DNA of 64,000 nucleotides, taken from assembly GCA_965200625.1 (NCBI GenBank), contig OZ241375.1, positions 1,896,087-1,960,086 of the forward strand. The letters are read 5' to 3'. A program made the position numbers and the translations under genes. This document shows positions 4,160 to 48,245 of this stretch, in pieces (position 1 is the stretch's first letter; the number at the start of each line of letters is the position of its first letter). Under the pieces are notes generated by a model. The model saw nothing but the letters and a program-made list of their open reading frames with translations, did not search any database and was not told the DNA's origin. The DNA is from Dehalococcoidia bacterium. GTDB taxonomy: Bacteria; Chloroflexota; Dehalococcoidia; Bin125.

Positions 4160-4600
4160 GGCGGCTCTGGGGATCCGTCATTGCCGCGCTCCGCTGCGGC
4201 AATCTCGACGCTTGGTTGACCGCTTCCGGCTCCGCATGGGTTCCCGCTTTCGCGGGAACGACGGTGGGGGAGGGGCTGATGGGGTGCTCGCCTGCTTTGG
4301 GATGCCCCCCTCAGTCACTGCGTGACAGGTCTCCCAGAGGGGGATAGCGCTGAAGCCCTTTCCGTCGTTCCTGCGAAAGCAGGAACCCATACGGAAGAGC
4401 GCTTCCGCCCCGATCTCTCGGTCACGTCGTCAGGGCGGCGCTCTCGAGGCTTTGGGGATGGTTTCGGCCATTGTTTGGGTTCCCGCTTTCGCGGGAACGA
4501 CGGTGGGGGAGGGGCTGATGGGGTGCTCGTCTGCTTTGGGACGCCCCCCCTCAGTCGCTGCGCGACAGCTCCCCCCGTGGGGGGAGCTCTACCCTTTGGG
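4160..4600. repeat. Composite MITE-like palindromic repeat region: one full copy 4238-4388 bounded by inverted hairpin TIRs GTTCCCGCTTTCGCGGGAACGACGG / CCGTCGTTCCTGCGAAAGCAGGAAC, plus a truncated second copy 4478-4600
   Basis: Directly visible near-identical units; same motifs recur at 30.6, 37.6, 44.9, 46.0-46.5 and 48.0-48.2 kb. Confidence 0.8.
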
Positions 4601-4616
4601 GGAGGAGGCGGTACTG

Positions 4617-5792
4617 ATGACTGATACGTTGACGGGTCAGCGGGTGGTTTGGGGGGAGCGGGTGGAGTCGATTGGGGAGGCGTTGCGGGCGGCGTCGCCG
4701 CGGAATGAGGCGTTGCGGCAGCTGTCGGGAGAGACGGAGGCGGCGCTGCGCTCGATTGATGTGTTTGGGCTGTGCTCGCCGGCGGAGTTGGGCGGGGAGG
4801 ACGCGCATCCGATCGCGCAGACGCAGGCGATTGCGGCGATTACCGCGCACGACACGTCGGCGGGCTGGTGCGCGTTGATTGGGGCGCATGAATCGGCGTG
4901 GCTGGCGAGCCGGCTGCCGGACGAGGCGGTCGGGCGCGTGTTTGCGGACGCGGCGCAGCGCTGGCCGGTGACGGCCGGCTCGATTGCGCCGGAGGGCGAG
5001 GCGGAGGTGGTGGAGGGCGGCTTGCGCGTCAAGGGGCGTTGGGGCTGGGCGTCGGGGATTCACCACTCGGACTATGTGTTGGCGACCTGCCGCATTGTCG
5101 GCGTTGAGCGGGAGCCGGGGCAGCCGCCGCCGATGGCGACGGTGGCCGCGCCCAAGGCCGAGGTGGCGGTAGAAGACACGTGGCACACGCTGGGGATGCG
5201 GGGGACGGGGAGCACGCACTATCGGTTGGAGGATGTGTTCATTCCGGCGGAGATGCAGTTGGCCGGCTTCGAGCGGCCGCCGCTGCGCGGCGGGGCCTGG
5301 CTGCAGCGGCCGGTACCGACCTTCCTGACCGCGGCCGGCTACGGCTTCCCGCTGGGCGTGGCGCGGCGGGCGCTGGAGGAGATTGTTGGGCTGGCCGCGA
5401 ATCGGGTGCGCACGGGGCAGCGGGAGTCGGTGGCGATGCAGCAGCACGCGCAGTACGAGATCGGCGAGTGCGCGGCGCTGCTGGATGTGATGGAGGGCTA
5501 CGGCGAGCAGCTGTTCCGCGATCTGCTGGCGGCGCCGGTCACGTCGTTGGCGGACGCGGTGCGGATGGATGATCGGGCGCGGGCGGCGCTGCGCTGGGCG
5601 CATCGGACGGCGGAGCAGATCGTGCGCAGCGCGCACGCGCACGCGGGCGGCGCGGCGATCTACGACGACAATCCGCTGCCGCGTTTGCTGCGCGATATCC
5701 AGACGGCGAGTCAGCATGTGATCCAGGTCGAGTCCGCCTATATTCGGCGCGGGCAGCAGGCGCTCGGCCTTGAGGTGCGGCCCGGTCTCTAG
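4617..5792 (+). CDS. Acyl-CoA dehydrogenase-fold flavin-dependent monooxygenase/oxidoreductase (DszC/SfnB/HpaB-C2-like)
   Basis: ATG at 4617 preceded by GGAGGAGG RBS. The ORF-track start 4452 would read through the repeat element. ACAD-like C-terminal helical domain present. Confidence 0.7.
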   Translation: MTDTLTGQRVVWGERVESIGEALRAASPRNEALRQLSGETEAALRSIDVFGLCSPAELGGEDAHPIAQTQAIAAITAHDTSAGWCALIGAHESAWLASRLPDEAVGRVFADAAQRWPVTAGSIAPEGEAEVVEGGLRVKGRWGWASGIHHSDYVLATCRIVGVEREPGQPPPMATVAAPKAEVAVEDTWHTLGMRGTGSTHYRLEDVFIPAEMQLAGFERPPLRGGAWLQRPVPTFLTAAGYGFPLGVARRALEEIVGLAANRVRTGQRESVAMQQHAQYEIGECAALLDVMEGYGEQLFRDLLAAPVTSLADAVRMDDRARAALRWAHRTAEQIVRSAHAHAGGAAIYDDNPLPRLLRDIQTASQHVIQVESAYIRRGQQALGLEVRPGL

Positions 5793-5831
5793 CGGTCTCT
5801 AGCGCCCGCGCCGATGGGAGGGGAGTACGTC

Positions 5832-7025
5832 ATGAGCCGGACCAGCACTGCGCGGCAGCGCGAGCGCGCGGACTGGATTGGGCGCGCGGAGTCTGTGCGG
5901 GGCGTGCTCAGCGAGCACGCGGGCGCGTCGACGGAGGCGCGGACGCTCGCGCCCGCCTCGGTGGCGGCGCTTGAGGACGCGGGCTTCTTCCGCATGGCCT
6001 CGCCCCAAGAGGTCGGCGGGCACGACGTGCATCCCGCGACGCAGGTGGAGGCGTTTGAGCAGCTGGCCGTCGCTGATGTCTCCAGCGGCTGGGTGGCGAT
6101 GATCCAGGCGGAGACGCCGGGTCTGGCGGGCTCGCATCTGCGCGACGGCGCGGGGCTGGACGCGGTCTTTGGCGGCGGCTTTCCGCGCATTGCGGGGACG
6201 GCCAATCCGGAGGGTCGGGCGACGGCGCTGCACGACGGCCGCTTCCGCTTCGATGGGCGCTGGTCGTTTGCGAGCGGGATTCGGCATTGCGGTTGGGTGC
6301 TGGCGAATGCGGTGGTGGTCAAGGCGGACGGCTCGCGTCCGACGCGTGAGGACGGTCTGCCGCCGGTGATTGGCGCGGTGATTGCGCAGTCGCGGCTGGT
6401 CGTGGAGGACAGCTGGCAGGTGATGGGGCTGGAGGGCACGGGGAGCTGCCACTATCAGGCGCACGGTGTGGTTGTGGAGCCGGAGTTCACGACTCCGTTT
6501 GGCGGCGTCCATAGCGAGCGCGGCGGGCCCTGGTTTGAGCTGCCGACGATTACCTTTCTCAGCCCGGGCCATACGGGAATTGCGCTGGGCTCCGCGCGGC
6601 GGGCGCTCGATCTGCTTGGCGGCGAGCTGACCAGCCGCGTCCGTTTTGGCGCGAGCGGCGCGATTGCCGATCGCGGGGCGTTCCAGCGTGATTACGGGGA
6701 GATGTGCTGCCGCTATGAGGCAGCTCGCGCCTATGCGTTGAGCACGCTGGATGAGGCGATGGCGCTGCGCGAGTCGGGTGAGGCGATTACTCCGGCCCGC
6801 GACGCTCGGATCCGGGCGATGGTCACCTGGGTGACTGATGTGTGCGTCGAGGTCGTGCGCTTTGCCCATCACGTCGGCGGGGGCGCGGCGGCGTTTACAG
6901 ATAGTCCGTTGCAGCAGCTGTTGCGCGACATCCTGGTCGCCAGCCAGCACATCTATGTTGCCGATAGCGCTTACGAACGCAGCGGCGCGTTTCGGCTGGG
7001 GCGCGCCCCGTCCAGTGCGCTCTAG
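5832..7025 (+). CDS. Acyl-CoA dehydrogenase-fold flavin-dependent monooxygenase, tandem paralog
   Basis: Paralogous to 4617-5792 with shared blocks (VEDxWHxxGMRGTGS, AAIYxDNPLxRLLRDI). ATG at 5832 with GGGAGGGGAG RBS. Confidence 0.7.
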   Translation: MSRTSTARQRERADWIGRAESVRGVLSEHAGASTEARTLAPASVAALEDAGFFRMASPQEVGGHDVHPATQVEAFEQLAVADVSSGWVAMIQAETPGLAGSHLRDGAGLDAVFGGGFPRIAGTANPEGRATALHDGRFRFDGRWSFASGIRHCGWVLANAVVVKADGSRPTREDGLPPVIGAVIAQSRLVVEDSWQVMGLEGTGSCHYQAHGVVVEPEFTTPFGGVHSERGGPWFELPTITFLSPGHTGIALGSARRALDLLGGELTSRVRFGASGAIADRGAFQRDYGEMCCRYEAARAYALSTLDEAMALRESGEAITPARDARIRAMVTWVTDVCVEVVRFAHHVGGGAAAFTDSPLQQLLRDILVASQHIYVADSAYERSGAFRLGRAPSSAL

Positions 7026-7048
7026 GCGCGCTCGCGCGTCTTGAGCGG

Positions 7049-7939
7049 CTAACGCGCAGCTTCCATGGCGGCGATCTGCTCTGACCAGGCGAGGACGTTC
7101 TCGGCCTGTTCGAGGACGGGCTTGTCAATCATCTGGCCGTCCAGCGCGACTGCGCCCAGATTCTGTTCGACGCCGTCCTGATAGGCCTCGACGACGCGGC
7201 GGGCCCAGTTGACGTCGTCTGGCGGCGGGCTGAAGACGCGGTTGGCGGGGGCGAGTTGATCGGGGTGGATGCAGAACTTGCCCTGGAAGCCGATCTCTTT
7301 CATTCGCCGGAGCTCGTCCTCGTAGCCCTCGGGGTCGCGGATGTCCGTCCAAGGGGTGTCCAGCGGGGCGATGCCGGCGGCGTGGGCGGCGTTGACGGAG
7401 GCGCGGCGGGCCAGCTCCAACTCTGCGCCGCCCTTGGTGCGGCGGACGCCGATGCTGACGGCGTAATCCTCGCCGCCGACGCAGATGCCGACCAGCCGCG
7501 CCGAGGCGGCGCAGATCTCGTAGGCGTTTGCGACCGCGTGCGCGTTTTCGATCCAGGCGGCGATCTTCACCTGGCCGTCGGCGAGGCCGCGGGCGCGTTC
7601 GATCAGGGTGAGGTAGTCGTCAATGCGCTGGACGTCGCGGGCGGACTCGATCTTGGAGACGCTGACGCCGTCCAGCCAGGGCTGGACGATGGCGTGGAGT
7701 TCCTGCTCGATCAGGCCGGTGTCGTAGCCGTTGGTGCGGACGAAGAGCTGGCGGCCGCGCTTGGGGAAATCGGGGAGGACTCGGCAGAGCAGGTCGCGGG
7801 CGGTGGGCTTGTCGTCCCAGGCGACGGAGTCTTCGAGGTCGAAGCAGAGCACGTCGGCTTGAGCGTCGCGGGCTTTCTCGATGAAGCGTTCCCGAATGCC
7901 GGGCACGGACAACATTGATCGCATCACGGTGGCGGCCAC
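7049..7939 (-). CDS. HpcH/HpaI aldolase / citrate-lyase beta (CitE)-like acyl-CoA lyase
   Basis: 296 aa; CitE/malyl-CoA lyase family pattern (SMLSVPG..., LCFDLEDSV, KIESARDV). A start at MRSM (7924) is also possible. Confidence 0.75.
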   Translation of the reverse strand: MAATVMRSMLSVPGIRERFIEKARDAQADVLCFDLEDSVAWDDKPTARDLLCRVLPDFPKRGRQLFVRTNGYDTGLIEQELHAIVQPWLDGVSVSKIESARDVQRIDDYLTLIERARGLADGQVKIAAWIENAHAVANAYEICAASARLVGICVGGEDYAVSIGVRRTKGGAELELARRASVNAAHAAGIAPLDTPWTDIRDPEGYEDELRRMKEIGFQGKFCIHPDQLAPANRVFSPPPDDVNWARRVVEAYQDGVEQNLGAVALDGQMIDKPVLEQAENVLAWSEQIAAMEAAR

Positions 7940-8640
7940 TACGAATCCTCCTGCTCGTCATCGACTGCTGCTGCGGGTCTCGTGAAGATTGTTCGCAAGC
8001 GTTCCAGATCGTCCGGGTTGTCGGTGGCGCAGCCGCGGAAGCCGAGCGCGGCGGCGGACTCGGCGTCGTCCGGGGAGCCGGAGACGACCGGGAGGTCGAA
8101 GGCGGCGGCGGTGAGGATGACCTGGGCGCGGGCGGCGGTGACGGTGTCGCTCTCGGGCGGCACGCCCAGGGACTCGGCCAGGGCGGGCTGATCGAAGGCG
8201 ATCCAGGTCATGCGCTCGGCTGAATCGCGCATGGTCTGGAGCGCGGCGGACATGAGGTTGAGCGCACGCGGGTCGTGGAAGCCGACCGCCATCGCGGTCA
8301 GTCCGGGACGAATGTTGGCGCGCAGCTCCAACTCCTCCAGGACGCCTTCGAGGTAGCGCAGCTGATCGACGCTGGCGATGGTCTGGACGCCGACGCCGTA
8401 GACGCCGGGCTGGAGGGTGTGTTGGAGGTAGGGACGCGCCAGGCCGCTGTCGATGGGGGGGATGATCAGGTAGACCGGCGGTCCGAGTTGGAGGGCGGCG
8501 TCCGTGCGCTCGGCGGCGGCGGGGTATTGGCTTTGCTCAGGCGGGTGGACCAGGATCAGGGCGTCAGCGTGCTCGACGTCGGCGGCGGCGGGCAGCGGTG
8601 TATCGGGCAGCAGGACCAACAGGGCGCGGACATTATCCAT
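7939..8640 (-). CDS. Divergent CitE/HpcH-like paralog (possibly non-catalytic)
   Basis: 233 aa with weak similarity to the HpcH fold. Stop overlaps the start of the downstream lyase gene by 1 nt (TGATG). Confidence 0.4.
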   Translation of the reverse strand: MDNVRALLVLLPDTPLPAAADVEHADALILVHPPEQSQYPAAAERTDAALQLGPPVYLIIPPIDSGLARPYLQHTLQPGVYGVGVQTIASVDQLRYLEGVLEELELRANIRPGLTAMAVGFHDPRALNLMSAALQTMRDSAERMTWIAFDQPALAESLGVPPESDTVTAARAQVILTAAAFDLPVVSGSPDDAESAAALGFRGCATDNPDDLERLRTIFTRPAAAVDDEQEDS

Positions 8641-8682
8641 CGCGGCGCTTGCCTCCCGCTTGTCGCTTGTCAGTTTCGCTCG

Positions 8683-10053: not shown

Positions 10054-10118
10054 GTCAGCCAAACGGGTCAGCGGGACAAGTCAGCGGGACAAGTCAGCGG
10101 GACAAGGCCGCGGGACGG
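10054..10118. repeat. 13-bp tandem repeat (GTCAGCGGGACAA x3 perfect, plus 2 degenerate flanking copies) in a divergent promoter region
   Basis: Seen directly between the M16 peptidase gene (-) and the hypothetical gene (+). Confidence 0.85.
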
Positions 10119-15762: not shown

Positions 15763-15795
15763 ACTGCCTGGACGACGTGGGGAGCCTTGCGCGGC

Positions 15796-15848
15796 TCCCC
15801 CCCTTAGTCCCTTCGGGACAGCTGCCCTAAAGGGGGAGCTCTGGGATG
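15796..15848. repeat. Solo copy of palindromic repeat motif (CCCCCCTTAGTCCCTTCGGGACAGCTGCCCTAAAGGGGGAG)
   Basis: Variant of the CCCCTTCAGTCGCTCCGCGACAGCTTCCCCCC...GGGGGG hairpin motif found in the other repeat regions. Confidence 0.6.
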
Positions 15849-15880
15849 GCCGCGGCGAGAGTTTTTTGCGGAGTGCGATC

Positions 15881-16816
15881 ATGGCCTCAGTTGAAACTGT
15901 GCTTGGACCGATTGCGGCTGGCGATCTGGGTTTCACGCTGTCGCATGAGCATGTGGCGATTACGCCCAGCGTGATTACGCAGCACTATCCGTGGCTGATC
16001 GACAAGGATGCGGTTCTGGCGCGGGCGATTGAGGAGTTGACGGAGGCGAAGCAGGGGGGCGTTGACTCGTTGATTGAGCTTTCCACCCCGGATCTCAACC
16101 GCGACGTTGAGGCGATGCGCACCGCCTCCGAAGCGTCGGGCGTCAACATTGTCTGCGCGACGGGCATCTGGCGCGATCCTCCGCGTTGGCTGTGGGACAA
16201 GCATCCGGACGCGATCGCTGACATCTTTGTCCGCGAGATCGAGGTCGGGATTGCCGATACGGGGATCAAGGCCGGCGTGATCAAGGTCGCCAACGACGCG
16301 GAGGGCGTGACGCCGCAGGGCGAACTGATCCTCCGCGCCGCGGCGCGGACGTGCAAGCGCACCGGCACGCCGATCTCGACGCACCACTGGGCGCCGCTGG
16401 AGGTCGGCCGTCGGCAGGCCGAGATTTTCCAGGAGGAATCCGCGCCGATGGATCGCATCTGCATTGGGCACACCGCCGACACGGTCAACGCGGACTACAT
16501 CGAAGACCTGCTCAAGACTGGCGTCTACATCTCGATGGATCGCTATCCCGGGCCGGAGGACGGCGCGGAGCGCCCGAACTGGGTGGCGCGCAACGAGACG
16601 GTCAAGGAGCTGATCCGGCGCGGCTGGGCGGACAAGCTGATGCTCGGCCACGACTACGCGGCCTTCCCGGGGTCGCCGCGCGACTATCCCACGCGCTACC
16701 TCTTCCTGACGACGACCGCAATCCCGGCGCTGCTCGCCGACGGCGTGCCGCCGGAGACGATTGACCAGATGATGCGGGAGGTCCCGCGCGAGTTCCTCAG
16801 CGGCGAATCGAACTGA
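15881..16816 (+). CDS. Phosphotriesterase-family (PTE/PHP) metal-dependent hydrolase
   Basis: GFTLSHEHV N-terminal metal-binding motif and TIM-barrel amidohydrolase pattern. ATG at 15881; the ORF-track start 15866 is TTG. Confidence 0.8.
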   Translation: MASVETVLGPIAAGDLGFTLSHEHVAITPSVITQHYPWLIDKDAVLARAIEELTEAKQGGVDSLIELSTPDLNRDVEAMRTASEASGVNIVCATGIWRDPPRWLWDKHPDAIADIFVREIEVGIADTGIKAGVIKVANDAEGVTPQGELILRAAARTCKRTGTPISTHHWAPLEVGRRQAEIFQEESAPMDRICIGHTADTVNADYIEDLLKTGVYISMDRYPGPEDGAERPNWVARNETVKELIRRGWADKLMLGHDYAAFPGSPRDYPTRYLFLTTTAIPALLADGVPPETIDQMMREVPREFLSGESN

Positions 16817-16838
16817 GCAGATTGGGCAAGGCGATCCC

Positions 16839-24954: not shown

Positions 24955-25647
24955 TCAATCCTCCAGCTCGGCCTCCGCCTCCGCCAACAGGAGGATCAGC
25001 CGCTGGGCCAGCGCAGGGACGTGCGCTTGGATGATCTCCCAGAGCTGCTCCGGCTCGATCTGGTAGTAGGCGTGGACAATCCGATGGCGCAGGCCGATCG
25101 TCTCGCGCCACGCAATCTCCGGATGCGCGTCCCGCACCCGGCGGGGGATCTTCCCCGCCTGCTCGCCGAGCTGCAGCAGGTGGAAACTCACCAGGTCGAA
25201 CCGATCCTCGTCGGCCAAGAATTCCTCGTAGTTGATCCCGGTCGTGCTGCCGATGACCCGCGCGCAGCGCTGCTGCATCTCCCGCACGTAGACGTCCCAG
25301 CGCTTGGGGCGTGATTCGTCGGGCATATGCGGCCTCGGATTCAGGGGATCGACTGCTTCGGCCTCGACCCAGGGCAGATACTCGCGGCGCATGTGCCGCT
25401 GCTCGACCAGATCAACCTTGCGCCCGAACAGCGCTTCGAGGTAAACCTCCGCCTCGGAGCGGCCCCAGGACCATTCGCAGTCGAGGGAGCCTACGAGGAT
25501 ATCGACGTCGCTCTCGGCGGTCGCCTCATCGCGCGCGGTGGAGCCGAACAAGCGCAGGTCGCGCACGCCAAAACGCTCGCGCAGCACCGGCAGATGCGCG
25601 CGCAGCAGCGCCAACGCCTCGTCCCTGCTGATCGCCTGATTGCTCAT
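24955..25647 (-). CDS. Fused minimal nucleotidyltransferase (MntA-like) - HEPN/HepT-like RNase domain protein, copy 1
   Basis: N-terminal LFGSTARDEATAESDVDILV (GSxxRGxxxxxSDxDxxV MNT motif); C-terminal GLRHRIVHAYYQ (HepT/DUF86 Rx4HxY). Convergent with dnaK (17 bp gap). Confidence 0.8.
   Translation of the reverse strand: MSNQAISRDEALALLRAHLPVLRERFGVRDLRLFGSTARDEATAESDVDILVGSLDCEWSWGRSEAEVYLEALFGRKVDLVEQRHMRREYLPWVEAEAVDPLNPRPHMPDESRPKRWDVYVREMQQRCARVIGSTTGINYEEFLADEDRFDLVSFHLLQLGEQAGKIPRRVRDAHPEIAWRETIGLRHRIVHAYYQIEPEQLWEIIQAHVPALAQRLILLLAEAEAELED
25288..25625. repeat. Direct repeat copy A (about 338 bp, roughly 97% identical to 26063-26400) covering the MNT-domain half of the fused gene
   Basis: Nucleotide alignment by eye of the 5' halves of the two paralogs. 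Confidence 0.8.
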
Positions 25648-25725
25648 CACCGCGCCTGCGCGTCCAGATTACCGCCCCGCGCTGCCTGCCTGTCCGGCGG
25701 CAACCGCGCCGCGCCCGCGCTGTCC

Positions 25726-26424
25726 TCAATCCTCCAGCTCGGCCTCCGCCTCCGCCTCCGCCAACAGCGGCTCCAGCTGTTCCGCCAACGCGGGGACGTG
25801 GTGCTGGATGATCTCCCAGAGCTTCGCCGGCTCGATCTGGTAGTAGGCGTGGGCGATCCGGTTGCGTAGGCCGATCGTCTCGCGCCACGCGATCTCAGGA
25901 TGCGCCTCGCGCACCGACGGCGGCGCCTTGCCTGCCAACTCGCCGATCTGGAGCAGATTGAAACTGACCGCCCGCAGCGTCCGCTCGTCGGCCAGATAGG
26001 CGTCGTAGTCCATCCCCGCCGTGAAGGCGGTGACCTCGCGGCAGTACTTGAGCATGTCGCGGATGTAGACGTCCCAGCGCTTGGGGCGTGATTCGTTGGG
26101 CATGTGGGGCCTCGGATTCAGGGGATCGACCGCCTCGGCCTCGACCCAGGGCAGATACTCGCGGCGCATGTGCCGCTGCTCGACCAGATCAACCTTGCGG
26201 CCGAACAGCGCTTCGAGGTAAACCTCCGCCTCGGAGCGGCCCCAGGACCATTCGCAGTCGAGGGAGCCGACGAGGATATCGACGTCGCTCTCGGCGGTCG
26301 CCTCATCGCGCGCCGTGGAGCCGAACAAGCGCAGGTCGCGCACGCCGAAGCGCTCGCGGAGCACCGGCAGATGCGCGCGCAGCAGCGCCAACGCCTCGTC
26401 CCGCCCCGTCACCGGCCTCGTCAT
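25726..26424 (-). CDS. Fused MNT - HEPN/HepT-like protein, copy 2 (tandem paralog)
   Basis: Same MNT motif; HEPN half diverged but carries the canonical GLRNRIAHAYYQ motif. Confidence 0.8.
   Translation of the reverse strand: MTRPVTGRDEALALLRAHLPVLRERFGVRDLRLFGSTARDEATAESDVDILVGSLDCEWSWGRSEAEVYLEALFGRKVDLVEQRHMRREYLPWVEAEAVDPLNPRPHMPNESRPKRWDVYIRDMLKYCREVTAFTAGMDYDAYLADERTLRAVSFNLLQIGELAGKAPPSVREAHPEIAWRETIGLRNRIAHAYYQIEPAKLWEIIQHHVPALAEQLEPLLAEAEAEAELED
26063..26400. repeat. Direct repeat copy B (MNT-domain half of paralog 2)
   Basis: See copy A. Confidence 0.8.
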
Positions 26425-30599: not shown

Positions 30600-30600
30600 C

Positions 30601-31030
30601 CAATCCGCCGTTCCCACCCCTCCCTCTTCCGTCATTCCTGCGCCTCCTTCCGTCATTCCTGCGAAAGCAGGAACCCATCCGCTACCGTTACTTCCGCTTC
30701 TCCACCCCCACTCTCTGTGCGTCGTTTCCGCGAAAGCGGGAACCTCGTCGCTGGGACGCGGCGGCGAGCATCGCTGGATTCCTGCTTTCGCAGGAATGAC
30801 GGAGGGGAGCGCAGAAACGGCGAAGGGGAGCGCAGAAACGACGGAGGGGAGCGCAGGAATGACGGAGGGGAGCGCAGGAACGACGGAGGTCAGCGCTCCC
30901 CCTTTGGGGGAGCTGTCGCGCAGCGACTGAGGGGGGCTTCTCCGAAGCAACGGGACAGCGCTGGGTGTAGTCACCCTAGGGGTTCCCGCTTGCGCGGGAA
31001 TGACGGAGAGGGGAGCGGGAACGATGGGTG
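30601..31030. repeat. Composite MITE-like repeat region with several hairpin modules (TCATTCCTGCGAAAGCAGGAAC, GAGCTGTCGCGCAGCGACTGAGGGGGG and others)
   Basis: Same motif family as 4160-4600. Confidence 0.8.
30793..30897. repeat. 21-bp tandem repeat x5 (GGAATGACGGAGGGGAGCGCA and variants)
   Basis: Five head-to-tail 21-bp units with no spacers; the unit is a half-site of the MITE terminal hairpin. Confidence 0.85.
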
Positions 31031-31041
31031 CGCGAACTGCG

Positions 31042-37576: not shown

Positions 37577-37595
37577 CCAGCCCCCTTGAGAGAGC

Positions 37596-37770
37596 ACTAC
37601 TCGCCGTCGTTCCTGCGAAAGCAGGAACCCACGCGGAGGTCGCGCTCGTCTCCCTGAGTTGAGCGATCACGGTTCAGACCAGGTGCGGGGACCGCGGCAT
37701 TTTTGGCACTTGGGCGACGGTTTCGGCCATGGTCTGGGTTCCTGCTTTCGCGGGAACGACGGAGCCTGTG
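37596..37770. repeat. MITE-like repeat elements (two opposed terminal-hairpin modules) between convergent operons
   Basis: CCGTCGTTCCTGCGAAAGCAGGAACCC at 37606-37632 and GGTTCCTGCTTTCGCGGGAACGACGG at 37738-37763. Confidence 0.75.
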
Positions 37771-37797
37771 TGCGGGGTGGTGCTCTGACCTTCGTTG

Positions 37798-42560: not shown

Positions 42561-43793
42561 CTAGGGCATCGGCAGCGTCGTCAGCAACCGCGCGATCAGG
42601 TCGTCGGCGCTGACCGCGTCGGCCTCCGCCTCATAGCTCAGGACGAGGCGGTGGCGGAGCGCGTCGAGTGCCATCGCCTTGACGTCGTCGGGCGTGGCGT
42701 AGTCGCGGCCTCCGAGCCAGGCGAGGGCGCGGGCGCTCATCGCCAGAGCGGTCGTCGCGCGGGGGGAGGCACCGAATTCGACGTACGCGGCCAGCTCCCG
42801 CACCGCGCGGCCCGGCGCGCGGGTCGCGCGGACGAGCTGCACGATGTAATCGCGCAGACGCGGCTCCATCCGCACCCCGCTCACCGCCCGGCGGGCGGCT
42901 AGCACCTCGCCCAGGCTGAGCACAGGGTCAACCGCGACCTGCTCGCCGGCGAGCGTGCGGTCGAGCACCTCGCGCTCATCCAACTCGCCCGGATAGTCGA
43001 CGCGCACGTTGAGCAGGAAGCGGTCAAGCTGCGCCTCGGGCAGGGGATAGGTGCCTTCCTGTTCGATCGGGTTCTGGGTCGCCAGGACGAGGAACGGCGC
43101 GGGCAGGGGAAAGGTCTCGCCGCCGATCGAGACCTGGCGCTCCTGCATCGCCTCGAGCAGCGCCGACTGGACTTTGGCCGGGGCGCGGTTGATCTCGTCG
43201 GCGAGCAGGACATTGGTGAAGATCGGCCCGCGGCGCACCTCGAAGCGCGATTCGACGGCGTTGTAGATCTCAGAGCCGGTCAGGTCGGCGGGCAGCAGGT
43301 CCGGAGTGAACTGGAGCCGCGCGTAGCCGGCGTCGAGGCAGCGGGCGAGCGTCGAAACGGTCAACGACTTGGCCAGGCCGGGCACGCCCTCGACCAAGCA
43401 GTGGCCGTCGCAGAGCAGCGCGACCAGCAGGCGCGTCACAAGCGCGTCCTGGCCGACGATCACGCGGCCAATTTCGCGGCGCAGCGCGGCAAACGGAGAA
43501 TCGTCCGGCAGCGCGGCCAGCGTCGGCGTCGGCAGCGTTGACAGGGGAGCGGGTTCGGCGGCGGACTCCGCAGCGGACGCGCGCGGCGGGGCGCTGGCAG
43601 CTGCGGTTGGCTGCGGTCGATCGCCTCTGGCCCACTCCGACACGTCGCGCCTGCCCTTCCTGCCCAGAGTTCTGCCCGCGGCCCGCCGCCCGGCAGCGCT
43701 GGAGCGGCCCGCCGCCCGGCAGCGCGGCGCTGCCCGCCGCCCGGCAGCGCTGGCGCTGCCTCGCCGTTCAGTGTATCCACGAACGCCTACCAT
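42561..43793 (-). CDS. MoxR-family AAA+ ATPase (N-terminus/start uncertain)
   Basis: GVPGLAKS Walker [10 protein letters not shown], MoxR C-terminal domain. The first roughly 100 codons are Ala/Arg-rich and overlie a tandem repeat, so the true start is probably further downstream. Confidence 0.8.
   Translation of the reverse strand: MVGVRGYTERRGSASAAGRRAAPRCRAAGRSSAAGRRAAGRTLGRKGRRDVSEWARGDRPQPTAAASAPPRASAAESAAEPAPLSTLPTPTLAALPDDSPFAALRREIGRVIVGQDALVTRLLVALLCDGHCLVEGVPGLAKSLTVSTLARCLDAGYARLQFTPDLLPADLTGSEIYNAVESRFEVRRGPIFTNVLLADEINRAPAKVQSALLEAMQERQVSIGGETFPLPAPFLVLATQNPIEQEGTYPLPEAQLDRFLLNVRVDYPGELDEREVLDRTLAGEQVAVDPVLSLGEVLAARRAVSGVRMEPRLRDYIVQLVRATRAPGRAVRELAAYVEFGASPRATTALAMSARALAWLGGRDYATPDDVKAMALDALRHRLVLSYEAEADAVSADDLIARLLTTLPMP
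43678..43760. repeat. About 26-bp tandem repeat x3 (CCCGCCGCCCGGCAGCGCTGG...)
   Basis: Seen directly in the 5' end / promoter region of the moxR ORF. Confidence 0.7.
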
Positions 43794-43857
43794 TCACGCA
43801 CGCCCCGTTGTCCCGGTCACGACAGGGGCAGGGGCGAGAAAGTGAACGGTGATCATC

Positions 43858-44832
43858 ATGCGCTTCGGGATCGGCGTGGGCAATATGAACGGGTTCAACG
43901 ACGAGTCGGGGCCCAACGCCTGCATCGACGTCGCCCAGGCGGCGGAGGATCTGGGCTTCGATTCCGTCTGGACCAACGATCACATCGTCGTCCCGACCCA
44001 GATCGAATCGCGCTATCCCTACAACGATCTGGGAGAGTTCCCCGCGCCCTCAACGATTCAGTGCTTCGATCCGCTGACCGTGATGTGCGCGTTGGCGGAG
44101 GCGACGCAGGCGGTTGAGATCGGCTGCTCGGTGCTGGTCATTCCCTATCGTCACCCGGCGGTGGTGGCGAAGATGCTCGCCGCCGCCGACCAGATTTCCG
44201 GCGGGCGGATCGTGCTCGGCGCGGGCGTCGGATGGATGCGCGAGGAGTTCGAGGCGCTCGGCCTGCCCGATCTGCACTACCGCCGGCGCGGCGCGGTGAC
44301 GAACGAGTATCTGCGCGCGATGCGGGAAATGTGGAACAATCCCGGCCCGTCGTCGTTCCACGGTCAGTTCGTCCAGTTCGAGAACGTCGGCGCGTATCCG
44401 AAGCCGGTGCGGAGCGAGGACGGCGGCGTGATTCCGATCATGATCGGCGGCAACGGGATCAACGCCTGGCGCCGCGCCTCGCGCTACGGCGACGGCTTCC
44501 ACGCGGCGTTCCAGACGGTCGAGAACCTGGCCGTCGAGGTGGAGGGCGTGCGCCGCGCCTGCGAGCGCGACCGCCGCGATCCGGACGAACTGGAAATCCA
44601 GATGCTCCAGGCGCTGCGCCCCGCAACGACGGCGCTGGACGAGGACGAACGCCCCCTGCTGCACGGCTCGCCCGACCAAATCGCCGCCGACCTGCTCGCC
44701 TTCGGCCGGGCCGGCCTGGAGCACCTGATCGCGACGCCGATGATGATCAACCCCGAAGGCGCGACCACCGTGGAGCGGGTGATCAACAGTATGCAGTTCA
44801 TCAGCGATGAAATCCTGCCAGCGTTCTCCTAG
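43858..44832 (+). CDS. LLM-class (luciferase-like) flavin/F420-dependent oxidoreductase
   Basis: MRFGIGVG...LGFDSVWTNDHI N-terminal TIM-barrel pattern of the LLM family. Confidence 0.8.
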   Translation: MRFGIGVGNMNGFNDESGPNACIDVAQAAEDLGFDSVWTNDHIVVPTQIESRYPYNDLGEFPAPSTIQCFDPLTVMCALAEATQAVEIGCSVLVIPYRHPAVVAKMLAAADQISGGRIVLGAGVGWMREEFEALGLPDLHYRRRGAVTNEYLRAMREMWNNPGPSSFHGQFVQFENVGAYPKPVRSEDGGVIPIMIGGNGINAWRRASRYGDGFHAAFQTVENLAVEVEGVRRACERDRRDPDELEIQMLQALRPATTALDEDERPLLHGSPDQIAADLLAFGRAGLEHLIATPMMINPEGATTVERVINSMQFISDEILPAFS

Positions 44833-44854
44833 CGCTGGGGAGATCGGCTCAATG

Positions 44855-44975
44855 CGCAACTCCCATTTCCTCTCTCCCCCCGCTTTGCGGGGGGAGATGC
44901 CGAAGGCAGAGGGGGGAGAGCGGGGAACCCCCCTTCAGTCGCTCCGCGACAGCTTCCCCCCAGAGGGGGGAAGCA
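44855..44975. repeat. MITE-like palindromic repeat copy (CCCCTTCAGTCGCTCCGCGACAGCTTCCCCCCAGAGGGGGGAAGC)
   Basis: Same motif family. Confidence 0.75.
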
Positions 44976-45027
44976 AGACTCACGCGAAGGTCTGCCGGCG
45001 GCGTAACGACGCACCAGGAGGAAGACA

Positions 45028-46005
45028 ATGAAATTCGGCATCCCGATTGGCAACTTTGGCACGGCGGGGAAGTACGGCGGCGTCAATGAGGTGATCGACA
45101 TCGCCGAGCGGGCGGAGCTGCTGGGCTTTGACTCGGTCTGGGTGCATGACCACATCTTCATGCCCGCCAGCATCAAGTCGCGCTATCCCTACAACGACTC
45201 CGGCGTGGCTGGCTTTGCCTACCACCAGGACATCATGGATCCGCTGGCCGTGATGTCGGCGGTGGCGGTGCGCACGTCCGAGATTCAGATCGGCACCTCG
45301 GTGCTGATCGTGCCCTACCGCGACCCGCTCTTCCAGGCGCAGAGCATTGCGACCATTGACCAGCTCTCGGAGGGCCGCGTGCTGCTCGGCATCGGCGTGG
45401 GCTGGATGGAAGAGGAGTTCGCCGCGCTGGGGCTGGAAGGCGAGCCGTTCACGCGGCGCGGCGCGCTGACGGATGAGTGGATGGCGATCGCGATCAGCGC
45501 CTGGACGCACGGCGTCAACCGCGAGCCGATCACGCATGAGGGGCACTTCCGCGAGTTCGAGAATCTGGGCGGGCTGTGCGGCTGCTACCAGCAACCGCAC
45601 GTGCCGATCTGGGTCGGCGGCAAGGGCCGCATCGCCGCCCGCCGCGTCGCCCGTTACGGCACGGGCTATCACACGATCACCTCGACGCCTGAGCAGATTC
45701 GGGCAGAGCTGGCGATCGTCGAGGAAGAGATGGACAACGCCGGGCGCGAGCTGGCGGAGCTGGAGATCTCCATGCTCGGGCCAATGGTGCTGCTCGACGG
45801 CGACCCGGACAGCGTGCGCGGTTTCCCGGCGGTGGTCGGCGGCTCGCGGGACGAGATCGTCGACACGCTCGGGCAGTACGAGGAGGCGGGTCTGGAGCAC
45901 GCCCTGACGATCCCCGCCTACCAAACACCCAACTGGGACGTCCCCCCCGACCAGCAAATGCAGGCCATGGCGGAGCTGGCGGAGATCGCAGAGGAACTGC
46001 GCTAG
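45028..46005 (+). CDS. LLM-class flavin/F420-dependent oxidoreductase (paralog)
   Basis: MKFGIPIGNFG...LGFDSVWVHDHI. Confidence 0.8.
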   Translation: MKFGIPIGNFGTAGKYGGVNEVIDIAERAELLGFDSVWVHDHIFMPASIKSRYPYNDSGVAGFAYHQDIMDPLAVMSAVAVRTSEIQIGTSVLIVPYRDPLFQAQSIATIDQLSEGRVLLGIGVGWMEEEFAALGLEGEPFTRRGALTDEWMAIAISAWTHGVNREPITHEGHFREFENLGGLCGCYQQPHVPIWVGGKGRIAARRVARYGTGYHTITSTPEQIRAELAIVEEEMDNAGRELAELEISMLGPMVLLDGDPDSVRGFPAVVGGSRDEIVDTLGQYEEAGLEHALTIPAYQTPNWDVPPDQQMQAMAELAEIAEELR

Positions 46006-46009
46006 TCCC

Positions 46010-46500
46010 GCACCGCTCTCCCGCCCCTCCCGCCGCGGCAATCTCGCCGCGCCCTGCAGAGCGGTTCGTGCTGGACGCGGCGAGATACCCGCGACGGAGT
46101 CGCGGGTATGACGGAGTGGTCGACGTCGCGGGTTATGACGGTGCGGGGGTGCGGGTATGACGGGGGTTGAGCGTCGCGCCCATGTTCCTGGGGCGGGCGC
46201 TCCCCTTCAGTCCTTCCGGGACAGCTTCCCCCCAGAGGGGGAGGCGAGCTCCTCCCGCCGTCATTGCCGCGCCCCGCCGCGGCAATCTCGCCGCGCCCTG
46301 CAGAGTGGTTCGTGCTGGACGCGGCGAGATACCCGCGACTCCGTCGCGGGTATGACGGAGTGGTCGACGTCGCGGGTATGACGGAGTAGAGGCGCGGGTA
46401 TGACGGGGGTTGCGCGTCGCGCCCATTTTCCTGGGGCGGACGCCCCCTCAGTCGCTCCGCGACAGCTCCCCCGGAGGGGGAGCGCTGAAAGCCTTGCCTT
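46010..46500. repeat. Composite repeat region containing a roughly 244-bp unit duplicated in tandem (about 46031-46274 and 46275-46490)
   Basis: Modules CGCCGCGGCAATCTCGCCGCGCCCTGCAGAG, GCGGCGAGATACCCGCGAC...GTCGCGGGTATGACGGAG and the CCCCTTCAGTC hairpin occur twice in the same order. Confidence 0.8.
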
Positions 46501-46548
46501 TGTTCCTGCGTGGACGCCTAGACTGCGCGCTGGGATGGAGGGTTTGTT

Positions 46549-47463
46549 ATGTCCAAGCCGGTCGTGATTGAGGCGGCGATTAATGGGGCGACGCCGCAGG
46601 CTCGGAATCCGCACTCGCCGCGGTCGGTGGCGGAGATTGCGGCCGATGCGGTGCGGGCGCTCGATGCGGGGGCGGCGATTGTGCACAACCACAACGATGA
46701 CGCGGTTGTCCACAGCCAGCCGCGGACGACGGCGGGTTGGCACGATCCGCAGCCCTACATCGACGCCTGGCGCGAGGTGCTGGCGCAGCGGTCGGACGCG
46801 ATTCTCTATCCGACGATGGGCTCGGGCGGGCGCGACTCCGAGATTGCGGTGCGCTACTCCCATCTGCCCGCCCTGAACGAGGCTGGCGTGCTGGGGCAGG
46901 GACTGATCGATCCGGGCTGCGTGGGCCTCGGTCCCGCCGACGAGCACGGCCTGCCGGCCCCGACCGACAACGTGTACATCAACACTTACCGCGACGCCCG
47001 CTACATGTTCGAGACCTGCCAGCGGATGGGTCGCGGCGCGTCGATCTCGATCTTCGAGCCGGGCTTCCTCCGCGTCGTGCTCGCCTATCACGCGCGGGGG
47101 CTGGTGCCGCAAGGATCGCTGGTCAAGCTCTACTTCGGGGGGATGGAACGCGGGCCGCTGGGCTTTGGCATGTTCCCCACGGAGCCGTGTCTGGACGCGT
47201 ATCTCTCGATGCTTGAGGGCACGGGGCTGGAGTGGTCGGTGGCGATCCTCGGCGGCGACTGCGTGGGCAGCGGCTTCGCGCGGCTGGCGCTGGAGCGGGG
47301 CGGACATCTCCGCGTCGGGCTGGAGGATTTCTACCAGGGCGCGCGGACGCCGACGAACACCGAGCTGCTCGAGGAGGCGGTCAGCCTCTGCGACGAGGTC
47401 GGGCGGCCGGTGGCGACGCCGTCGGAGGCGCGGGCGCTGCTGGGTCTGCCGGCGAGCCAGTAG
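46549..47463 (+). CDS. 3-keto-5-aminohexanoate cleavage enzyme family (BKACE/DUF849) protein
   Basis: VVIEAAINGA...AIVHNHNDD N-terminal TIM-barrel pattern of the BKACE family. Confidence 0.7.
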   Translation: MSKPVVIEAAINGATPQARNPHSPRSVAEIAADAVRALDAGAAIVHNHNDDAVVHSQPRTTAGWHDPQPYIDAWREVLAQRSDAILYPTMGSGGRDSEIAVRYSHLPALNEAGVLGQGLIDPGCVGLGPADEHGLPAPTDNVYINTYRDARYMFETCQRMGRGASISIFEPGFLRVVLAYHARGLVPQGSLVKLYFGGMERGPLGFGMFPTEPCLDAYLSMLEGTGLEWSVAILGGDCVGSGFARLALERGGHLRVGLEDFYQGARTPTNTELLEEAVSLCDEVGRPVATPSEARALLGLPASQ

Positions 47464-47487
47464 CCCCCATTTGCAAAGGAGCGAACG

Positions 47488-47991
47488 ATGTATGAGATGC
47501 AATCCGAGACCTTGCGCGACTTCCTCGAACGGCCGCTGCCCGCCATCCTGGCGACGCTGCGGCGGGACGGCAGCCCGTACACGATCCCGCTCTGGTACCT
47601 GTGGGAGGGCGACGTACCGGACGACGTGCATCCGCTCCACAATCCGCCGCGCGGCTGCGCCTGGTTCCTCGGCGGCGAGACGAGCACCTGGGTCCGCCAC
47701 CTCCAGCGCGACCCGCGTATGTCGCTCTGCATCGACGTGGAGGGCCCGCCGGCGATGCACGTCGGGATCGACGGCACGGCGGAGCTCCTGACTGCAGCAG
47801 AGACCGACCCCTGGCCGTTGATGCGCCAGCTGGTGGAGAAGTATGTGGGGCGCGGCGATCCGGCGAACGCCGAGGCGGTCGAGGGTTACTTGGAGTCAAC
47901 GCGTTCAATGTCACCGATCCTGTTCAAGGCGACGCCGACCAGGTGGCGGACGATTGATCTGTCCAGGTTCGAGCCGGGCCAGGACGCCTAG
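47488..47991 (+). CDS. PPOX-class (pyridoxamine 5'-phosphate oxidase-like) F420/FMN-binding split-barrel protein
   Basis: 167 aa; LATLRRDGSPYTIPLWY pattern. Confidence 0.7.
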   Translation: MYEMQSETLRDFLERPLPAILATLRRDGSPYTIPLWYLWEGDVPDDVHPLHNPPRGCAWFLGGETSTWVRHLQRDPRMSLCIDVEGPPAMHVGIDGTAELLTAAETDPWPLMRQLVEKYVGRGDPANAEAVEGYLESTRSMSPILFKATPTRWRTIDLSRFEPGQDA

Positions 47992-47994
47992 GGC

Positions 47995-48245
47995 GGCGGG
48001 CGGCCCCCCTTCAGTCGCTCCGCGACAGCTTCCCCCCGGAGGGGGGAAGCGAGTTCCTCCCGCCGTCATTGCCGCACAGAGCAGAGCGGTTCGTGCTGGG
48101 CGCGGCGAGATACCCGCAACGAAGTCGCGGGTATGACGGAGAGGGATGGCGCGGATCTGACGGTGTGGATGGCGTGGCCGGTGTGACGGAGGTTGAGGGG
48201 GGCGCCGTCGTCGGAGCGTTGGGGTTTGGGTGGGTAGAATGCGCT
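47995..48245. repeat. MITE-like repeat copy
   Basis: Same modules as the 46.0-46.5 kb region. Confidence 0.8.

Follow-up and report, generated by a model that had tools for sequence, protein, structure and literature searches.

The seven intergenic loci described here, on a Chloroflexota chromosome, are, with a probability that we put at roughly 0.78, clusters built as mosaics from small palindromic REP-type repeats that are non-autonomous. The window, i.e. the whole stretch of 64,000 nucleotides that was analysed, comes from a Chloroflexota bacterium with 70% G+C, and its loci carry four recurring hairpin modules, named A, B, C and D, at a frequency far above chance. A known class of repeats, the CGTC-tagged REPs resembling dRS3 and NIME, is hereby found in Chloroflexota, together with a co-occurring element, module B, which is widespread, undescribed and oddly symmetric. 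The original prediction of a modular, non-autonomous family of intergenic palindromes is borne out, and of the natures it had offered, MITE-like or REP-like, the second was the right one.

Repeat loci and their CGTC-tagged hairpins

All repeat loci lie inside the 9% of the window that is non-coding, the 91% that is coding being free of them, and they occupy 7 of the 15 gaps of at least 90 bp between genes. Module A (GTTCCYGC-TTKC-GCRGGAAY-GACGG) has 9 copies in the window with up to 3 mismatches allowed, for 0.00 expected, and the core of module B has 8 for 0.13 expected, while the 3' arm and tag of module C are repeated in the clusters at 46.0-46.5 and 48.1 kb; modules A, B and C are indeed where they had been placed, in numbers far above chance. 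Module D (CCGTC-ATTGCCGCG-N6-CGCGGCAAT-CTCG), with two full copies and one half copy in the window, is a fourth module that had not been separated before. At least eight loci, with partial modules elsewhere, had been announced: the repeats are real but their loci number seven, and no convincing partial copy was found elsewhere in the window, the extra matches at 35874 and 61749 being intragenic and at chance level. Sequence identity between copies is 84-96%. Inside the repeats, short-read contigs of the same organism break or switch partners, so that copies beyond the window are implied as well. The features are the following:

4175..4264, unstranded: D-A doublet, tags outward; D hairpin 4175-4207 (+), CCGTC-ATTGCCGCG-N6-TGCGGCAAT-CTCG; A hairpin 4237-4264 (-)
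4305..4350, plus strand: degenerate module B, core 4311-4330; repeat family D2
4362..4503, unstranded: A-A inverted doublet, tags outward, REPIN-like; CGTC-1 REPs 4362-4389 (+) and 4476-4503 (-)
4545..4591, plus strand: module B; tract CCCCCCC; hairpin S GTCGC-TGC-GCGAC; hairpin X GCTCCCCCC-GTG-GGGGGGAGC
15798..15848, plus strand: module B with degenerate second hairpin, 35 nt past the rho stop codon
30629..30802, unstranded: CGTC-1 REP cluster; head-plus-arm half unit 30629-30641; A 30650-30677 (+); A 30719-30746 (+, degenerate); A 30775-30802 (-)
30789..30896, plus strand: tandem array, 21 nt x 5.1, of half units (3' arm, GACGG tag and AGGGGAG); repeat family D6
30890..30936, minus strand: module B, lying past the M23 peptidase gene of this strand and in sense with it
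30979..31030, minus strand: CGTC-1 REP with loop GCAA, and one more half unit
37604..37762, unstranded: A-A inverted doublet with tags outward; the TGase and VWA genes converge on it
44868..44915, minus strand: B-type variant, reverse, CTCCCCCC-GCTTTGC-GGGGGGAG-A-TGCCGAAGGCA-GA-GGGGGG
44929..44975, plus strand: module B, TT subtype; tract CCCCCCTTC; hairpin X GCTTCCCCCC-AGA-GGGGGGAAGC
46006..46494, plus strand: two tandem units of ~244 bp, each D(+)-spacer-C(-)-(C half units)-B(+); C hairpins 46077-46114 and 46321-46358; full D 46258-46290, the first D being a 3' half only; B 46201-46245 and 46442-46485; repeat families D5 and D14
48005..48189, plus strand: mixed cluster between two PNPOx genes; B 48005-48050; D half unit 48063-48075; C hairpin 48102-48139; degenerate C half units 48148-48189

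The expected siting between convergent genes and within tandem paralog pairs holds for LLM/LLM and PNPOx/PNPOx, both recognised by Pfam, but the cluster 4121-4616 sits between divergent genes, so the repeats are not limited to convergent or same-strand junctions. The announced tandem duplication of about 244 bp at 46.0-46.5 kb is present, with copies 243-244 bp apart and 86-96% identical. This unit and the 21-26-nt arrays of "arm + tag" half units show local growth by tandem duplication after the repeats had arrived.

Modules A, C and D are, by their predicted hairpins, CGTC-tagged REPs, and A fits the published CGTC-1 family, the dRS3 type of Neisseria, exactly in head, stem length, loop length and tail. 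Published CGTC repeats bear an unpaired CGTC (or TGTC/CCTC) at one hairpin end and their families have a stem of 8-9 bp, a loop of 4-5 nt and a CCA tail, CGTC-1, of which dRS3 is a member, having an 8-bp stem with complementary A/T at positions 1 and 2, a 4-nt loop and an unpaired 3-nt tail, mostly CCA (PMC3733652). The 8-4-8 layout is found in 9/9 copies of module A in the window, with 7 or 8 of the 8 stem positions paired, as is the CGTC head (eight CCGTC, one GCGTC); eight copies have the loop GAAA and one has GCAA, and the tail is CCA in 7/9, the others being CCC and CTC. Stem position 2 is T:A, and position 1, mainly A:T in other genomes, is G:C in 5 window copies and A:T in 1, the remaining 3 having a mismatch there (A.C or G.T). 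The family recurs far outside the window, as had been foreseen. Indeed, the exact 25-mer of module A is found at at least 117 loci across many phyla (Chloroflexota, Alpha-, Beta- and Gammaproteobacteria, Gemmatimonadota, Nitrospirota, Thermodesulfobacteriota and Binatia), where the commonest forms have the stem ATTCCCGC, the loop GAAA and the tail CCA; this tail ends 224 of the 307 copies collected from 117 loci plus the window. When copies are chosen by their head, loop and tail anchors alone, at least 7 of the 8 stem positions pair in 45/48, with compensatory pairs at positions 2, 3 and 6. Modules C and D both carry the CGTC tag and a CTC tail, on a stem of 11 bp with a 3-nt loop in C and a stem of 9 bp with a 6-nt loop in D; they would work like CGTC REPs yet fall outside the four published families, since their stem, loop and tail values differ.

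Presence and absence in related genomes

Syntenic loci were compared in six related Chloroflexota genomes, and the presence/absence polymorphism that had been anticipated is seen, although with relatives only 75-87% identical it stands for gain or loss, and recombination or import with neighbouring DNA fits equally. The spacers of the relatives are free of repeats, measuring 15 bp at LLM/LLM, 30 bp at PNPOx/PNPOx in relative L131, 3-46 bp at TGase/VWA and 2 bp at rho/yjbR, and none of the four modules occurs along the 21 kb of L131 that are syntenic. Both tandem pairs, LLM/LLM and PNPOx/PNPOx, are likewise present in relatives, and their members share only 41% and 54% protein identity, respectively. 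The proposal that the repeats mediated the duplication of these paralogs finds no support: the repeats are much later than the duplications, because the relatives' pairs have spacers of just 15 and 30 bp and because the paralogs are 41% and 54% identical as against 84-96% for the repeats. The comparison shows the repeats as what would be recent, lineage-specific insertions, entered after the flanking genes and paralog pairs were placed.

Furthermore, the repeat clusters coincide with sites of gene gain and loss. The B copy at 15798..15848 is the left edge of a 1,075-bp insertion (15763-16838) between rho and yjbR that also contains a PTE-family gene, a 393-aa acyl-CoA dehydrogenase gene is missing precisely at the position of the 4.1-4.6 kb cluster, and the gene content of the LLM2/BKACE gap differs in each relative. 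Because of this coincidence, the clusters may constitute hot spots of recombination and indels. The same gene-content differences match another explanation, possible but unlikely in our estimate, according to which the hairpins are above all what a site-specific recombinase (IS110/Piv-type or phage-borne) targets and produces, as modelled for NIME/dRS3, with adjacent gene cassettes inserted or exchanged at the hairpins and the mosaic arrays left as a by-product; module A is in the family of dRS3, for which phage integration and a recombination hot-spot have been reported (PMC1797815; PMC3733652). However, recombinase or phage genes were found neither in the window, where a filamentous prophage and a Piv/IS110-type recombinase gene are both absent, nor beside the copies in the sampled loci. 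At four loci (37.6, 44.9, 48.0 and 30.6 kb), moreover, repeat DNA is the sole difference from the relatives and there is no cassette, and the association with indels may merely reflect joint accumulation in permissive intergenic sites.

Module B and the ends of genes

Module B is a double-hairpin element unrelated to the REPs with which it co-occurs. It ranges over metagenomes at 34-72% G+C and phage-like contigs, and has neither an Rfam entry nor a description in the literature searched. Rfam gave no match in the window at the gathering score and nothing relevant in 44800-48300 at E up to 10, and a scan of 16 B-carrying loci returned tRNAs only. The B-type variant at 44868..44915 and the module B at 44929..44975 form an inverted dimer.

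The orientation of module B bears on the reading, improbable in our view, that the hairpins are not mobile DNA but cis-regulatory or RNA elements selected by the host (terminators, mRNA 3'-end stabilisers or attenuators), which would have spread through selection at gene ends. All 8 B copies of the window, amounting to only about six independent ones, run in the direction of local transcription and three lie 15-35 nt past a stop codon; the stems are strongly kept through compensatory change, and in other bacteria REPs are reported to follow ORFs for the most part and to be, as is believed, transcribed (PMC3733652). Yet the metagenome set has no orientation bias of B, one cluster lies between divergent genes, Rfam matches none of the elements, and the matching junctions of the relatives do without repeats, their spacers being 2-30 bp. 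U-tracts and terminator-like sites are lacking as well, with no T-runs after B or the REPs and, in 43500-49000, 0 terminator-like sites where shuffles give 2.0. On these grounds the hairpins do not qualify as intrinsic terminators.

As REP-type repeats, the G+C-rich hairpins, where transcribed, and chiefly the sense B copies just past stop codons, may nonetheless act as mRNA-stabilising 3'-end barriers and not as canonical terminators, a role suggested by orientation. In E. coli, BIMEs and REPs are stabilisers of mRNA 3' ends and are likewise G+C-rich hairpins past stop codons, within or ending operons. As to the symmetry of module B, the pyrimidine tract at its 5' end is a mirror image of the second hairpin's 5' arm, which is the layout that an intramolecular triple helix would require, a triplex reading that is speculative. 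In its order of strands (pyrimidine tract, then stem-loop, pyrimidine arm and purine arm) module B agrees with the MALAT1-type triple helix, formed by a eukaryotic/viral-type ENE and an A-rich tract, and to our knowledge this ENE-type helix has no bacterial counterpart. Whereas ENEs are built from U.A-U triples, module B would require C+.G-C triples in runs, and these are disfavoured at neutral pH.

Doublets, mobilisation and known repeat families

Propagation appears to act on an inverted doublet whose tags point outward (A-A, D-A or D-C) and which could fold into one long hairpin in the manner of REPINs. Outside the window, pairs with tags outward number 69, against 8 with tags inward. In the window, 4362-4503 and 37604-37762 are homologous end to end, 4175-4264 and 46258-46358 also have the tags-outward layout, and a D-C doublet is found at a non-orthologous site in relative L252. 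Folding yields a single long hairpin for the A-A doublet 4362-4504 (-89.4 kcal/mol, z = -8.3), for the D-C doublet 46257-46361 (-67.8 kcal/mol, z = -6.4) and for 37610-37757 (z = -5.9), the latter within the A-A doublet 37604..37762 that a short outer inverted repeat encloses (GAGAGCACTAC / GTGGTGCTCTG); for 4175..4264 it yields two hairpins closed by CCGUC/GACGG pairing (z = -2.65).

The inverted A pair around 4238-4388 (4240-4264 and 4362-4386) does exist, but its description as a MITE with 25-bp TIRs finds no support, the termini being full REP hairpins with no target-site duplication seen. This tags-inward arrangement enclosing a B module occurs once in the window and is the junction of two doublets with a B module in between. 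That the elements are classical MITEs, i.e. IS deletion derivatives with 25-bp TIRs served by a DDE transposase whose gene lies in another part of the genome, is very improbable: they are non-coding, polymorphic in insertion, about 90-160 bp long between inverted A copies and set in a transposase-free window compatible with action in trans, but each "TIR" is a hairpin with the asymmetric CGTC head and CCA tail of the REP signature (PMC3733652), single copies, same-orientation and half-unit arrays are common where cut-and-paste of a TIR unit predicts none of these, no target-site duplication or flanking direct repeat is visible at 4175-4264, 4362-4503 or 37604-37762, the 4238-4388 arrangement is non-recurrent, no parent insertion sequence sharing the module A ends was seen, and about 0.9 Mb from other genomes has no transposase among the gene families recurring near copies.

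The REP-type doublets would rather be copied in trans, the enzyme being encoded at another site and recognising the hairpin in its folded single-stranded form together with the tag, with the candidates being a RAYT/IS200-like HUH tyrosine transposase or a site-specific recombinase targeting hairpins; the identity of the enzyme is the weakest step of this proposal. In keeping with the original prediction, Pfam detected no transposase among the ~58 genes of the window, and a RAYT/Y1 transposase is absent both there and among the families recurring near copies. The missing transposase agrees with the published lack of a dedicated one for CGTC REPs, for which no RAYT gene is known (PMC3733652).

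With the CGTC-1 repeats of Di Nocera, De Gregorio and Rocco (2013, PMC3733652), module A shares the CGTC head, 8-bp stem, 4-nt loop and CCA tail, the intergenic position, the inverted dimers and the absence of a neighbouring transposase, several REP types per genome being found in both cases. Its 117-locus consensus, CGTC-ATTCCCGC-GAAA-GCGGGAAT-CCA, is the dRS3-type sequence assigned to CGTC-1 (PMC3733652). In contrast, Chloroflexota was not in the five phyla then listed, stem position 1 is mostly G:C here and A:T as published, modules C and D depart in stem, loop and their CTC tail, tandem "arm + tag" half-unit arrays are prominent here, and clusters, rare as published except in Neisseria and Wolbachia, are frequent here (PMC3733652). 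Three or four of the seven window loci are clusters, at odds with that rarity.

REPINs, which PMC3733652, citing Bertels and Rainey (2011), presents as doublets of GTAG-tagged REPs moved by RAYTs, are in that account likewise inverted doublets folding into one long hairpin (as do three window doublets, z -5.9 to -8.3), present or absent between relatives and of several families per genome; the tag is CGTC here and GTAG there.

In the NIME arrays of Neisseria, dRS3 repeats alternate with RS elements (Parkhill 2000; Bentley 2007, PMC1797815), 20-bp ATTCCC-N8-GGGAAT units flanking RS elements of 50-150 bp, and such arrays are stated to be absent outside Neisseria (PMC1797815). The window copy 30775-30802 is ATTCCTGC-GAAA-GCAGGAAT, the other A copies starting with GTTCC or ending with GGAAC, and arrays with interleaved modules are found at 4.1-4.6, 30.6-31.0 and 46.0-46.5 kb. 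Both systems appear to have arrays of ATTCC-N8-GGAAT-type hairpins alternating with other repeat families of 20-150 bp, module B co-occurring with REPs as RS elements alternate with dRS3, and both vary between related genomes and adjoin variable gene content. The arrays described here differ in measuring at most 0.55 kb, in their Chloroflexota host of 70% G+C and in that the interleaved module B is a conserved cross-phylum element.

Repeat modules and their identity as CGTC-tagged REPs

The repeats of the window are a real REP-type family, for the most part already known, lying in an ordinary chromosomal housekeeping region. Its ~58 genes, delimited by frame-specific G+C and Pfam, occupy 91% of the window (G+C ~70%) and include purA, a Dam-type methyltransferase, three acyl-CoA dehydrogenases, CTP synthase, transaldolase, rho, hrcA-grpE-dnaK-dnaJ-prmA-rsmE, two MoxR/DUF58/VWA/transglutaminase clusters, two luciferase-like monooxygenases (LLM), one BKACE enzyme, two PNPOx-family proteins and one MFS transporter. 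Named nearest homologues are labelled Chloroflexi/Chloroflexota, Dehalococcoidia or Tepidiformaceae, and no tRNA or tmRNA gene was found in the window.

Between dnaK and dnaJ (24955-26424) lie two fused MNT-HepT genes (nucleotidyltransferase plus HepT-like RNase), tandem copies 81-88% identical and 777 bp apart; at this position L254 and L255, two relatives, show just ~80 bp of spacer, so the toxin-antitoxin-like pair is an insertion into the heat-shock operon that is specific to this lineage. The gene for the Dam-type N6-adenine methyltransferase (952-1950) and a PD-(D/E)XK nuclease gene on the minus strand (1942-2379) converge and overlap, so the two may form a restriction-modification pair; in the relative L253 the methyltransferase is present and no gene is called from there to the MaoC gene. 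Short tandem repeats unrelated to the REP modules occur at 54798-54857, 10054-10116, 43677-43766 and 57693-57746, among them a 26-nt x 2.3 perfect repeat where the HAD and transketolase genes converge and a 26-nt x 3.5 repeat within the 5' end of a minus-strand MoxR gene.

The recurrence of repeat modules at intergenic sites, as in the original prediction, is borne out by their counts. Module A, a hairpin with a CCGTC/GACGG tag, has 9 copies in the window at up to 3 mismatches (0.00 expected), and the core of module B, a separate double hairpin, has 8 (0.13 expected), while the 3' arm and tag of module C, another tagged hairpin, recur many times in the clusters at 46 and 48 kb. A fourth module, D (CCGTC-ATTGCCGCG-N6-CGCGGCAAT-CTCG), is separated here, with two full copies and one half copy. 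The tandem duplication at 46.0-46.5 kb is equally real, with a 244-bp unit and copies 86-96% identical. The proposed number of at least eight loci has to be lowered, all copies lying within seven gaps, that is, 7 of the 15 window gaps of at least 90 bp.

Repeat-bearing intergenic gaps and the structures within them (doublet, two tagged hairpins in inverted orientation; half-unit array, tandem "arm + tag" units with a period of 21-26 nt)
4121-4616: D-A doublet, tags outward (4175-4264); A-A doublet, tags outward (4362-4503)
15763-15865: repeat-bearing gap
30600-31041: half-unit array (30789-30896)
37577-37797: A-A doublet, tags outward (37604-37762)
44833-45027: repeat-bearing gap
46006-46548: D-C doublet, tags outward (46258-46358), and a truncated version (46020-46114); half-unit arrays (46099-46163, 46343-46406)
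47992-48268: truncated D-C doublet (48063-48139); half-unit array (48124-48189)

Short-read Logan contigs of the same organism (L001-L006, L125-L127) end inside B, D and C modules or switch within them to unrelated genes, for example a YbjQ_1 gene, a practical sign of assembly collapse and of further repeat copies elsewhere in the genome. Such clusters create spurious ORFs, break short-read assemblies and mark the points of variation in a housekeeping region that is syntenic elsewhere.

Read on the other strand, module A is CCGTC-(G/A)TTCCYGC-GAAA-GCRGGAAC-CCA: the CGTC head is unpaired, the stem is 8 bp long, the loop has 4 nt and the tail is CCA. This layout defines, in the literature, the CGTC-1 family of CGTC-tagged REPs, in which the dRS3 repeat of Neisseria (ATTCCC-N8-GGGAAT) has been placed (PMC3733652). 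A scan of one genome per species places its exact 25-mer at at least 117 loci; among the matches listed, ~40 are Dehalococcoidia/Chloroflexota MAGs and the others belong to Alpha-, Beta- and Gammaproteobacteria, Gemmatimonadaceae, Nitrospirae, Thermodesulfobacteriota, Binatia and a few others, with stem ATTCCCGC, loop GAAA and tail CCA predominating. When copies were picked by head, loop and tail only, leaving out those selected by the scan pattern, 45 of 48 paired at no fewer than 7 of the 8 stem positions, with compensatory pairs at positions 2 (T:A or C:G), 3 (T:A or C:G) and 6 (C:G, G:C or T:A), so the hairpin is under constraint. Module C (CCGTC-ATACCCGCGAC-N3-GTCGCGGGTAT-CTCGCCGC) has its head in common with D and A. 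The stem and loop sizes of C and D fall beyond the published CGTC ranges, and both have a CTC tail. The two modules behave as CGTC REPs, yet they do not belong to any of the four described families. Rfam gave no match in the window at gathering score and nothing relevant there at permissive E-values.

The commonest pairing at module A loci of other genomes, among the matches listed, is of two inverted REPs with tags outward, 14-52 bp apart (69 tags-outward pairs, 49 in the same orientation and only 8 tags-inward). The two A-A doublets of the window align over their whole length, and the relative L252 carries a D-C doublet too, at a different site. When the doublets are folded as single strands, the predicted structures are long hairpins or three-way junctions, closed where CCGUC pairs with GACGG (z scores from -5.9 to -8.3). 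The supposed 150-bp element with 25-bp terminal inverted repeats (4238-4388) is the place where two doublets adjoin, the tags turned inward and a B module separating them. This arrangement was found once, and no target-site duplications were seen; the description as REP-like is right, that as a MITE with terminal inverted repeats is not. The half-unit arrays recur in an unrelated Dehalococcoidia MAG (L104, OZ251457.1), in which C-type hairpins at 1170-1290 and 6830-6890 are flanked by "tag + arm" arrays, on both sides at the first site, where the tag forms part of the palindrome. These arrays are therefore a trait of the REP families and not a local accident.

Gain of the repeats and the search for a mobilising enzyme

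Protein look-ups led to the syntenic loci of six related assemblies (L128-L131, L252-L255), which are 75-87% identical at the nucleotide level, and comparison of the insertion sites reveals short repeat-free junctions, that is, clear empty sites.

Junctions in relatives and in the window
LLM1/LLM2: 15 bp in both lineages examined; 195 bp in the window, with an inverted B'/B dimer inside
PNPOx1/PNPOx2: 30 bp in L131; 277 bp in the window
TGase/VWA (convergent): 3, 9 or 46 bp in relatives; 221 bp in the window
rho stop/yjbR start: 2 nt in L253; 1,075 bp in the window (15763-16838), with a phosphotriesterase (PTE)-family gene and B at the left edge
Divergent acyl-CoA dehydrogenase spacer: 94-104 bp in relatives, then an extra 393-aa dehydrogenase gene, present in both (L253 7475-8912, L252 6292-7732); in the window (4121-4732) this gene is missing and a 496-bp repeat cluster stands in its place
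LLM2/BKACE: different small genes in each relative; a 543-bp repeat cluster in the window

The 21-kb syntenic stretch of L131 holds no A, B, C or D; related repeats do occur in the relatives, at other sites. Repeat copies are 84-96% identical to each other, whereas protein identity is 41% for the LLM pair and 54% for the PNPOx pair, so this lineage acquired the repeats well after the paralogs had arisen. The idea that the repeats had mediated the duplication of these paralogs is accordingly rejected, on paralog divergence and on synteny. The repeats coincide instead with sites of gene gain and loss, as do the NIME arrays of Neisseria, which had been described as confined to that genus (PMC1797815). 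The window thereby provides NIME-like mosaics at synteny breakpoints outside Neisseria and extends dRS3/NIME-type mosaics to Chloroflexota; it also offers clear empty-site evidence of recent CGTC REP gain in a phylum where these repeats were not previously catalogued.

As had been noted, the window lacks a transposase: no transposase, integrase or Y1/HUH protein is found among its ~58 genes. ORF clustering around the module A loci (at least 117) returned only large housekeeping families as recurring genes (SDR, ABC, LLM, histidine-kinase, MFS and similar, among the matches listed), and around those of B (at least 120) spurious repeat-spanning ORFs and housekeeping genes, with no transposase in either set. 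The literature likewise describes CGTC REPs as having no dedicated transposase (PMC3733652). We infer that they may be mobilised in trans by an HUH-type enzyme or a hairpin-targeting recombinase. With many CGTC REP copies gained since the split from relatives 75-87% identical, and with clear empty sites, this lineage is a good place to seek the mobiliser.

Module B, a widespread structured element

Module B is composed of a C-tract, TCA, hairpin S (GTCGC-TNC-GCGAC), an A and hairpin X (GCTCCCCC-loop-GGGGGAGC). Its 20-nt core occurs at at least 120 metagenome loci of 34% to 72% G+C, many from human-gut assemblies, and at 28 more loci in viral contigs, including prophage-like or GTA-like head-gene clusters. 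It is conserved across genomes of 34% to 74% G+C. Together with a partner family, B2 (CCCCCTCC-GGCCC-TYC-GGGCC-A-CCTCCCCC-AGA-GGGGGAGG), it forms inverted heterodimers joined by ATCT...AGAT, which occupy spacers between the terminase, portal and capsid genes of such clusters in IMG/VR contigs of 71-74% G+C (L257, L263, L265, L267, L275, L278, L281). Inverted B pairs 1.2-1.4 kb apart in IMG/VR contigs were considered as transposase flanks and discarded, portal, capsid and terminase genes lying between them instead. In human-gut contigs of ~58-62% G+C (L136, L138, L146, L163, L181 and others), B sits inside longer mosaics of other hairpin modules, which adjoin tRNA genes in L138. These gut mosaics include reverse-oriented B-like units with a different hairpin S (GTCAAAACC-TGAC-GGTTTTGCC), so B looks like one member of a larger superfamily.

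Hairpin X was left unconstrained by the search pattern. Among the matches listed, 98 of 117 unique copies nevertheless form a perfect stem of at least 6 bp there, compared with 3 of 117 shuffled ones, and the sole variable pair of hairpin S is always complementary (106 G..C, 11 C..G, no other); at least 12 different arm sequences are used in hairpin X. These stems and this complementarity indicate that B is structured. No match to B was found in Rfam, nor anything relevant in 16 loci carrying it, and a literature search for the exact B and B2 strings returned no relevant paper. All eight window copies are co-directional with local transcription and three lie 15-35 nt past a stop codon; among the metagenome matches listed, orientation relative to ORF ends is not significant (17/39 versus 12/34). 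Terminator and promoter scans found nothing, and B has no U-tracts.

Mirror symmetry of B and a putative triple helix

On the 5' side of TCAGTC lies a pyrimidine tract that mirrors the hairpin X 5' arm and is neither its complement nor a direct copy. Where either base is not C, tract and arm match at 20 of 60 positions (33%); permutations yield 3.9% (11% at most), and moving the register by one base leaves matches at 7/55 and 5/125. A non-C base within four positions of the stem base occurs in 19 sequence classes of B; the tract mirrors the arm exactly in 10 of these, copies it directly in 1 and does neither in the remaining 8, several of which miss by a single base. These counts are inflated by shared subfamily ancestry. 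Independent support comes from B2, which follows the same mirror rule (CCCCCTCC / CCTCCCCC / GGGGGAGG), and from a TCT/TCT/AGA variant of B (window 44868-44915; L252).

Hairpin X 5' arm and pyrimidine tract in examples of B
arm TCCCC, tract CCCCT
arm CTCCC, tract CCCTC
arm CCTCC, tract CCTCC
arm CCCTC, tract CTCCC
arm CTCCCC, tract CCCCTC

An intramolecular pyrimidine-motif triple helix calls for a pyrimidine tract that runs in parallel with the purine arm, T facing A and C facing G. On these sequence patterns, we consider it improbable, at roughly one chance in eight, that B and its partner families are undescribed cross-phylum elements which, as single-stranded RNA or DNA, would form such a helix intramolecularly. 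The 5' pyrimidine tract would then be the Hoogsteen strand, running in parallel with the 3' purine arm of hairpin X, and hairpin S the linker; the order that results, from Hoogsteen strand through linker hairpin and Watson-Crick pyrimidine strand to purine strand, is topologically right. Against a triple helix, runs of C+.G-C triples are unfavourable at neutral pH, some low-G+C classes have A instead of the expected T, and the classes lack phylogenetic independence.

B is in any case a widespread, unannotated element with a mirror-repeat signature, absent from Rfam and the searchable literature, and this signature is cheaply testable in vitro. If B does form a triple helix, it would represent a new kind of bacterial structural module, for 3' ends or for single-stranded DNA. 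MALAT1/ENE triple helices protect RNA 3' ends, and the strand order proposed for B is the same as theirs.
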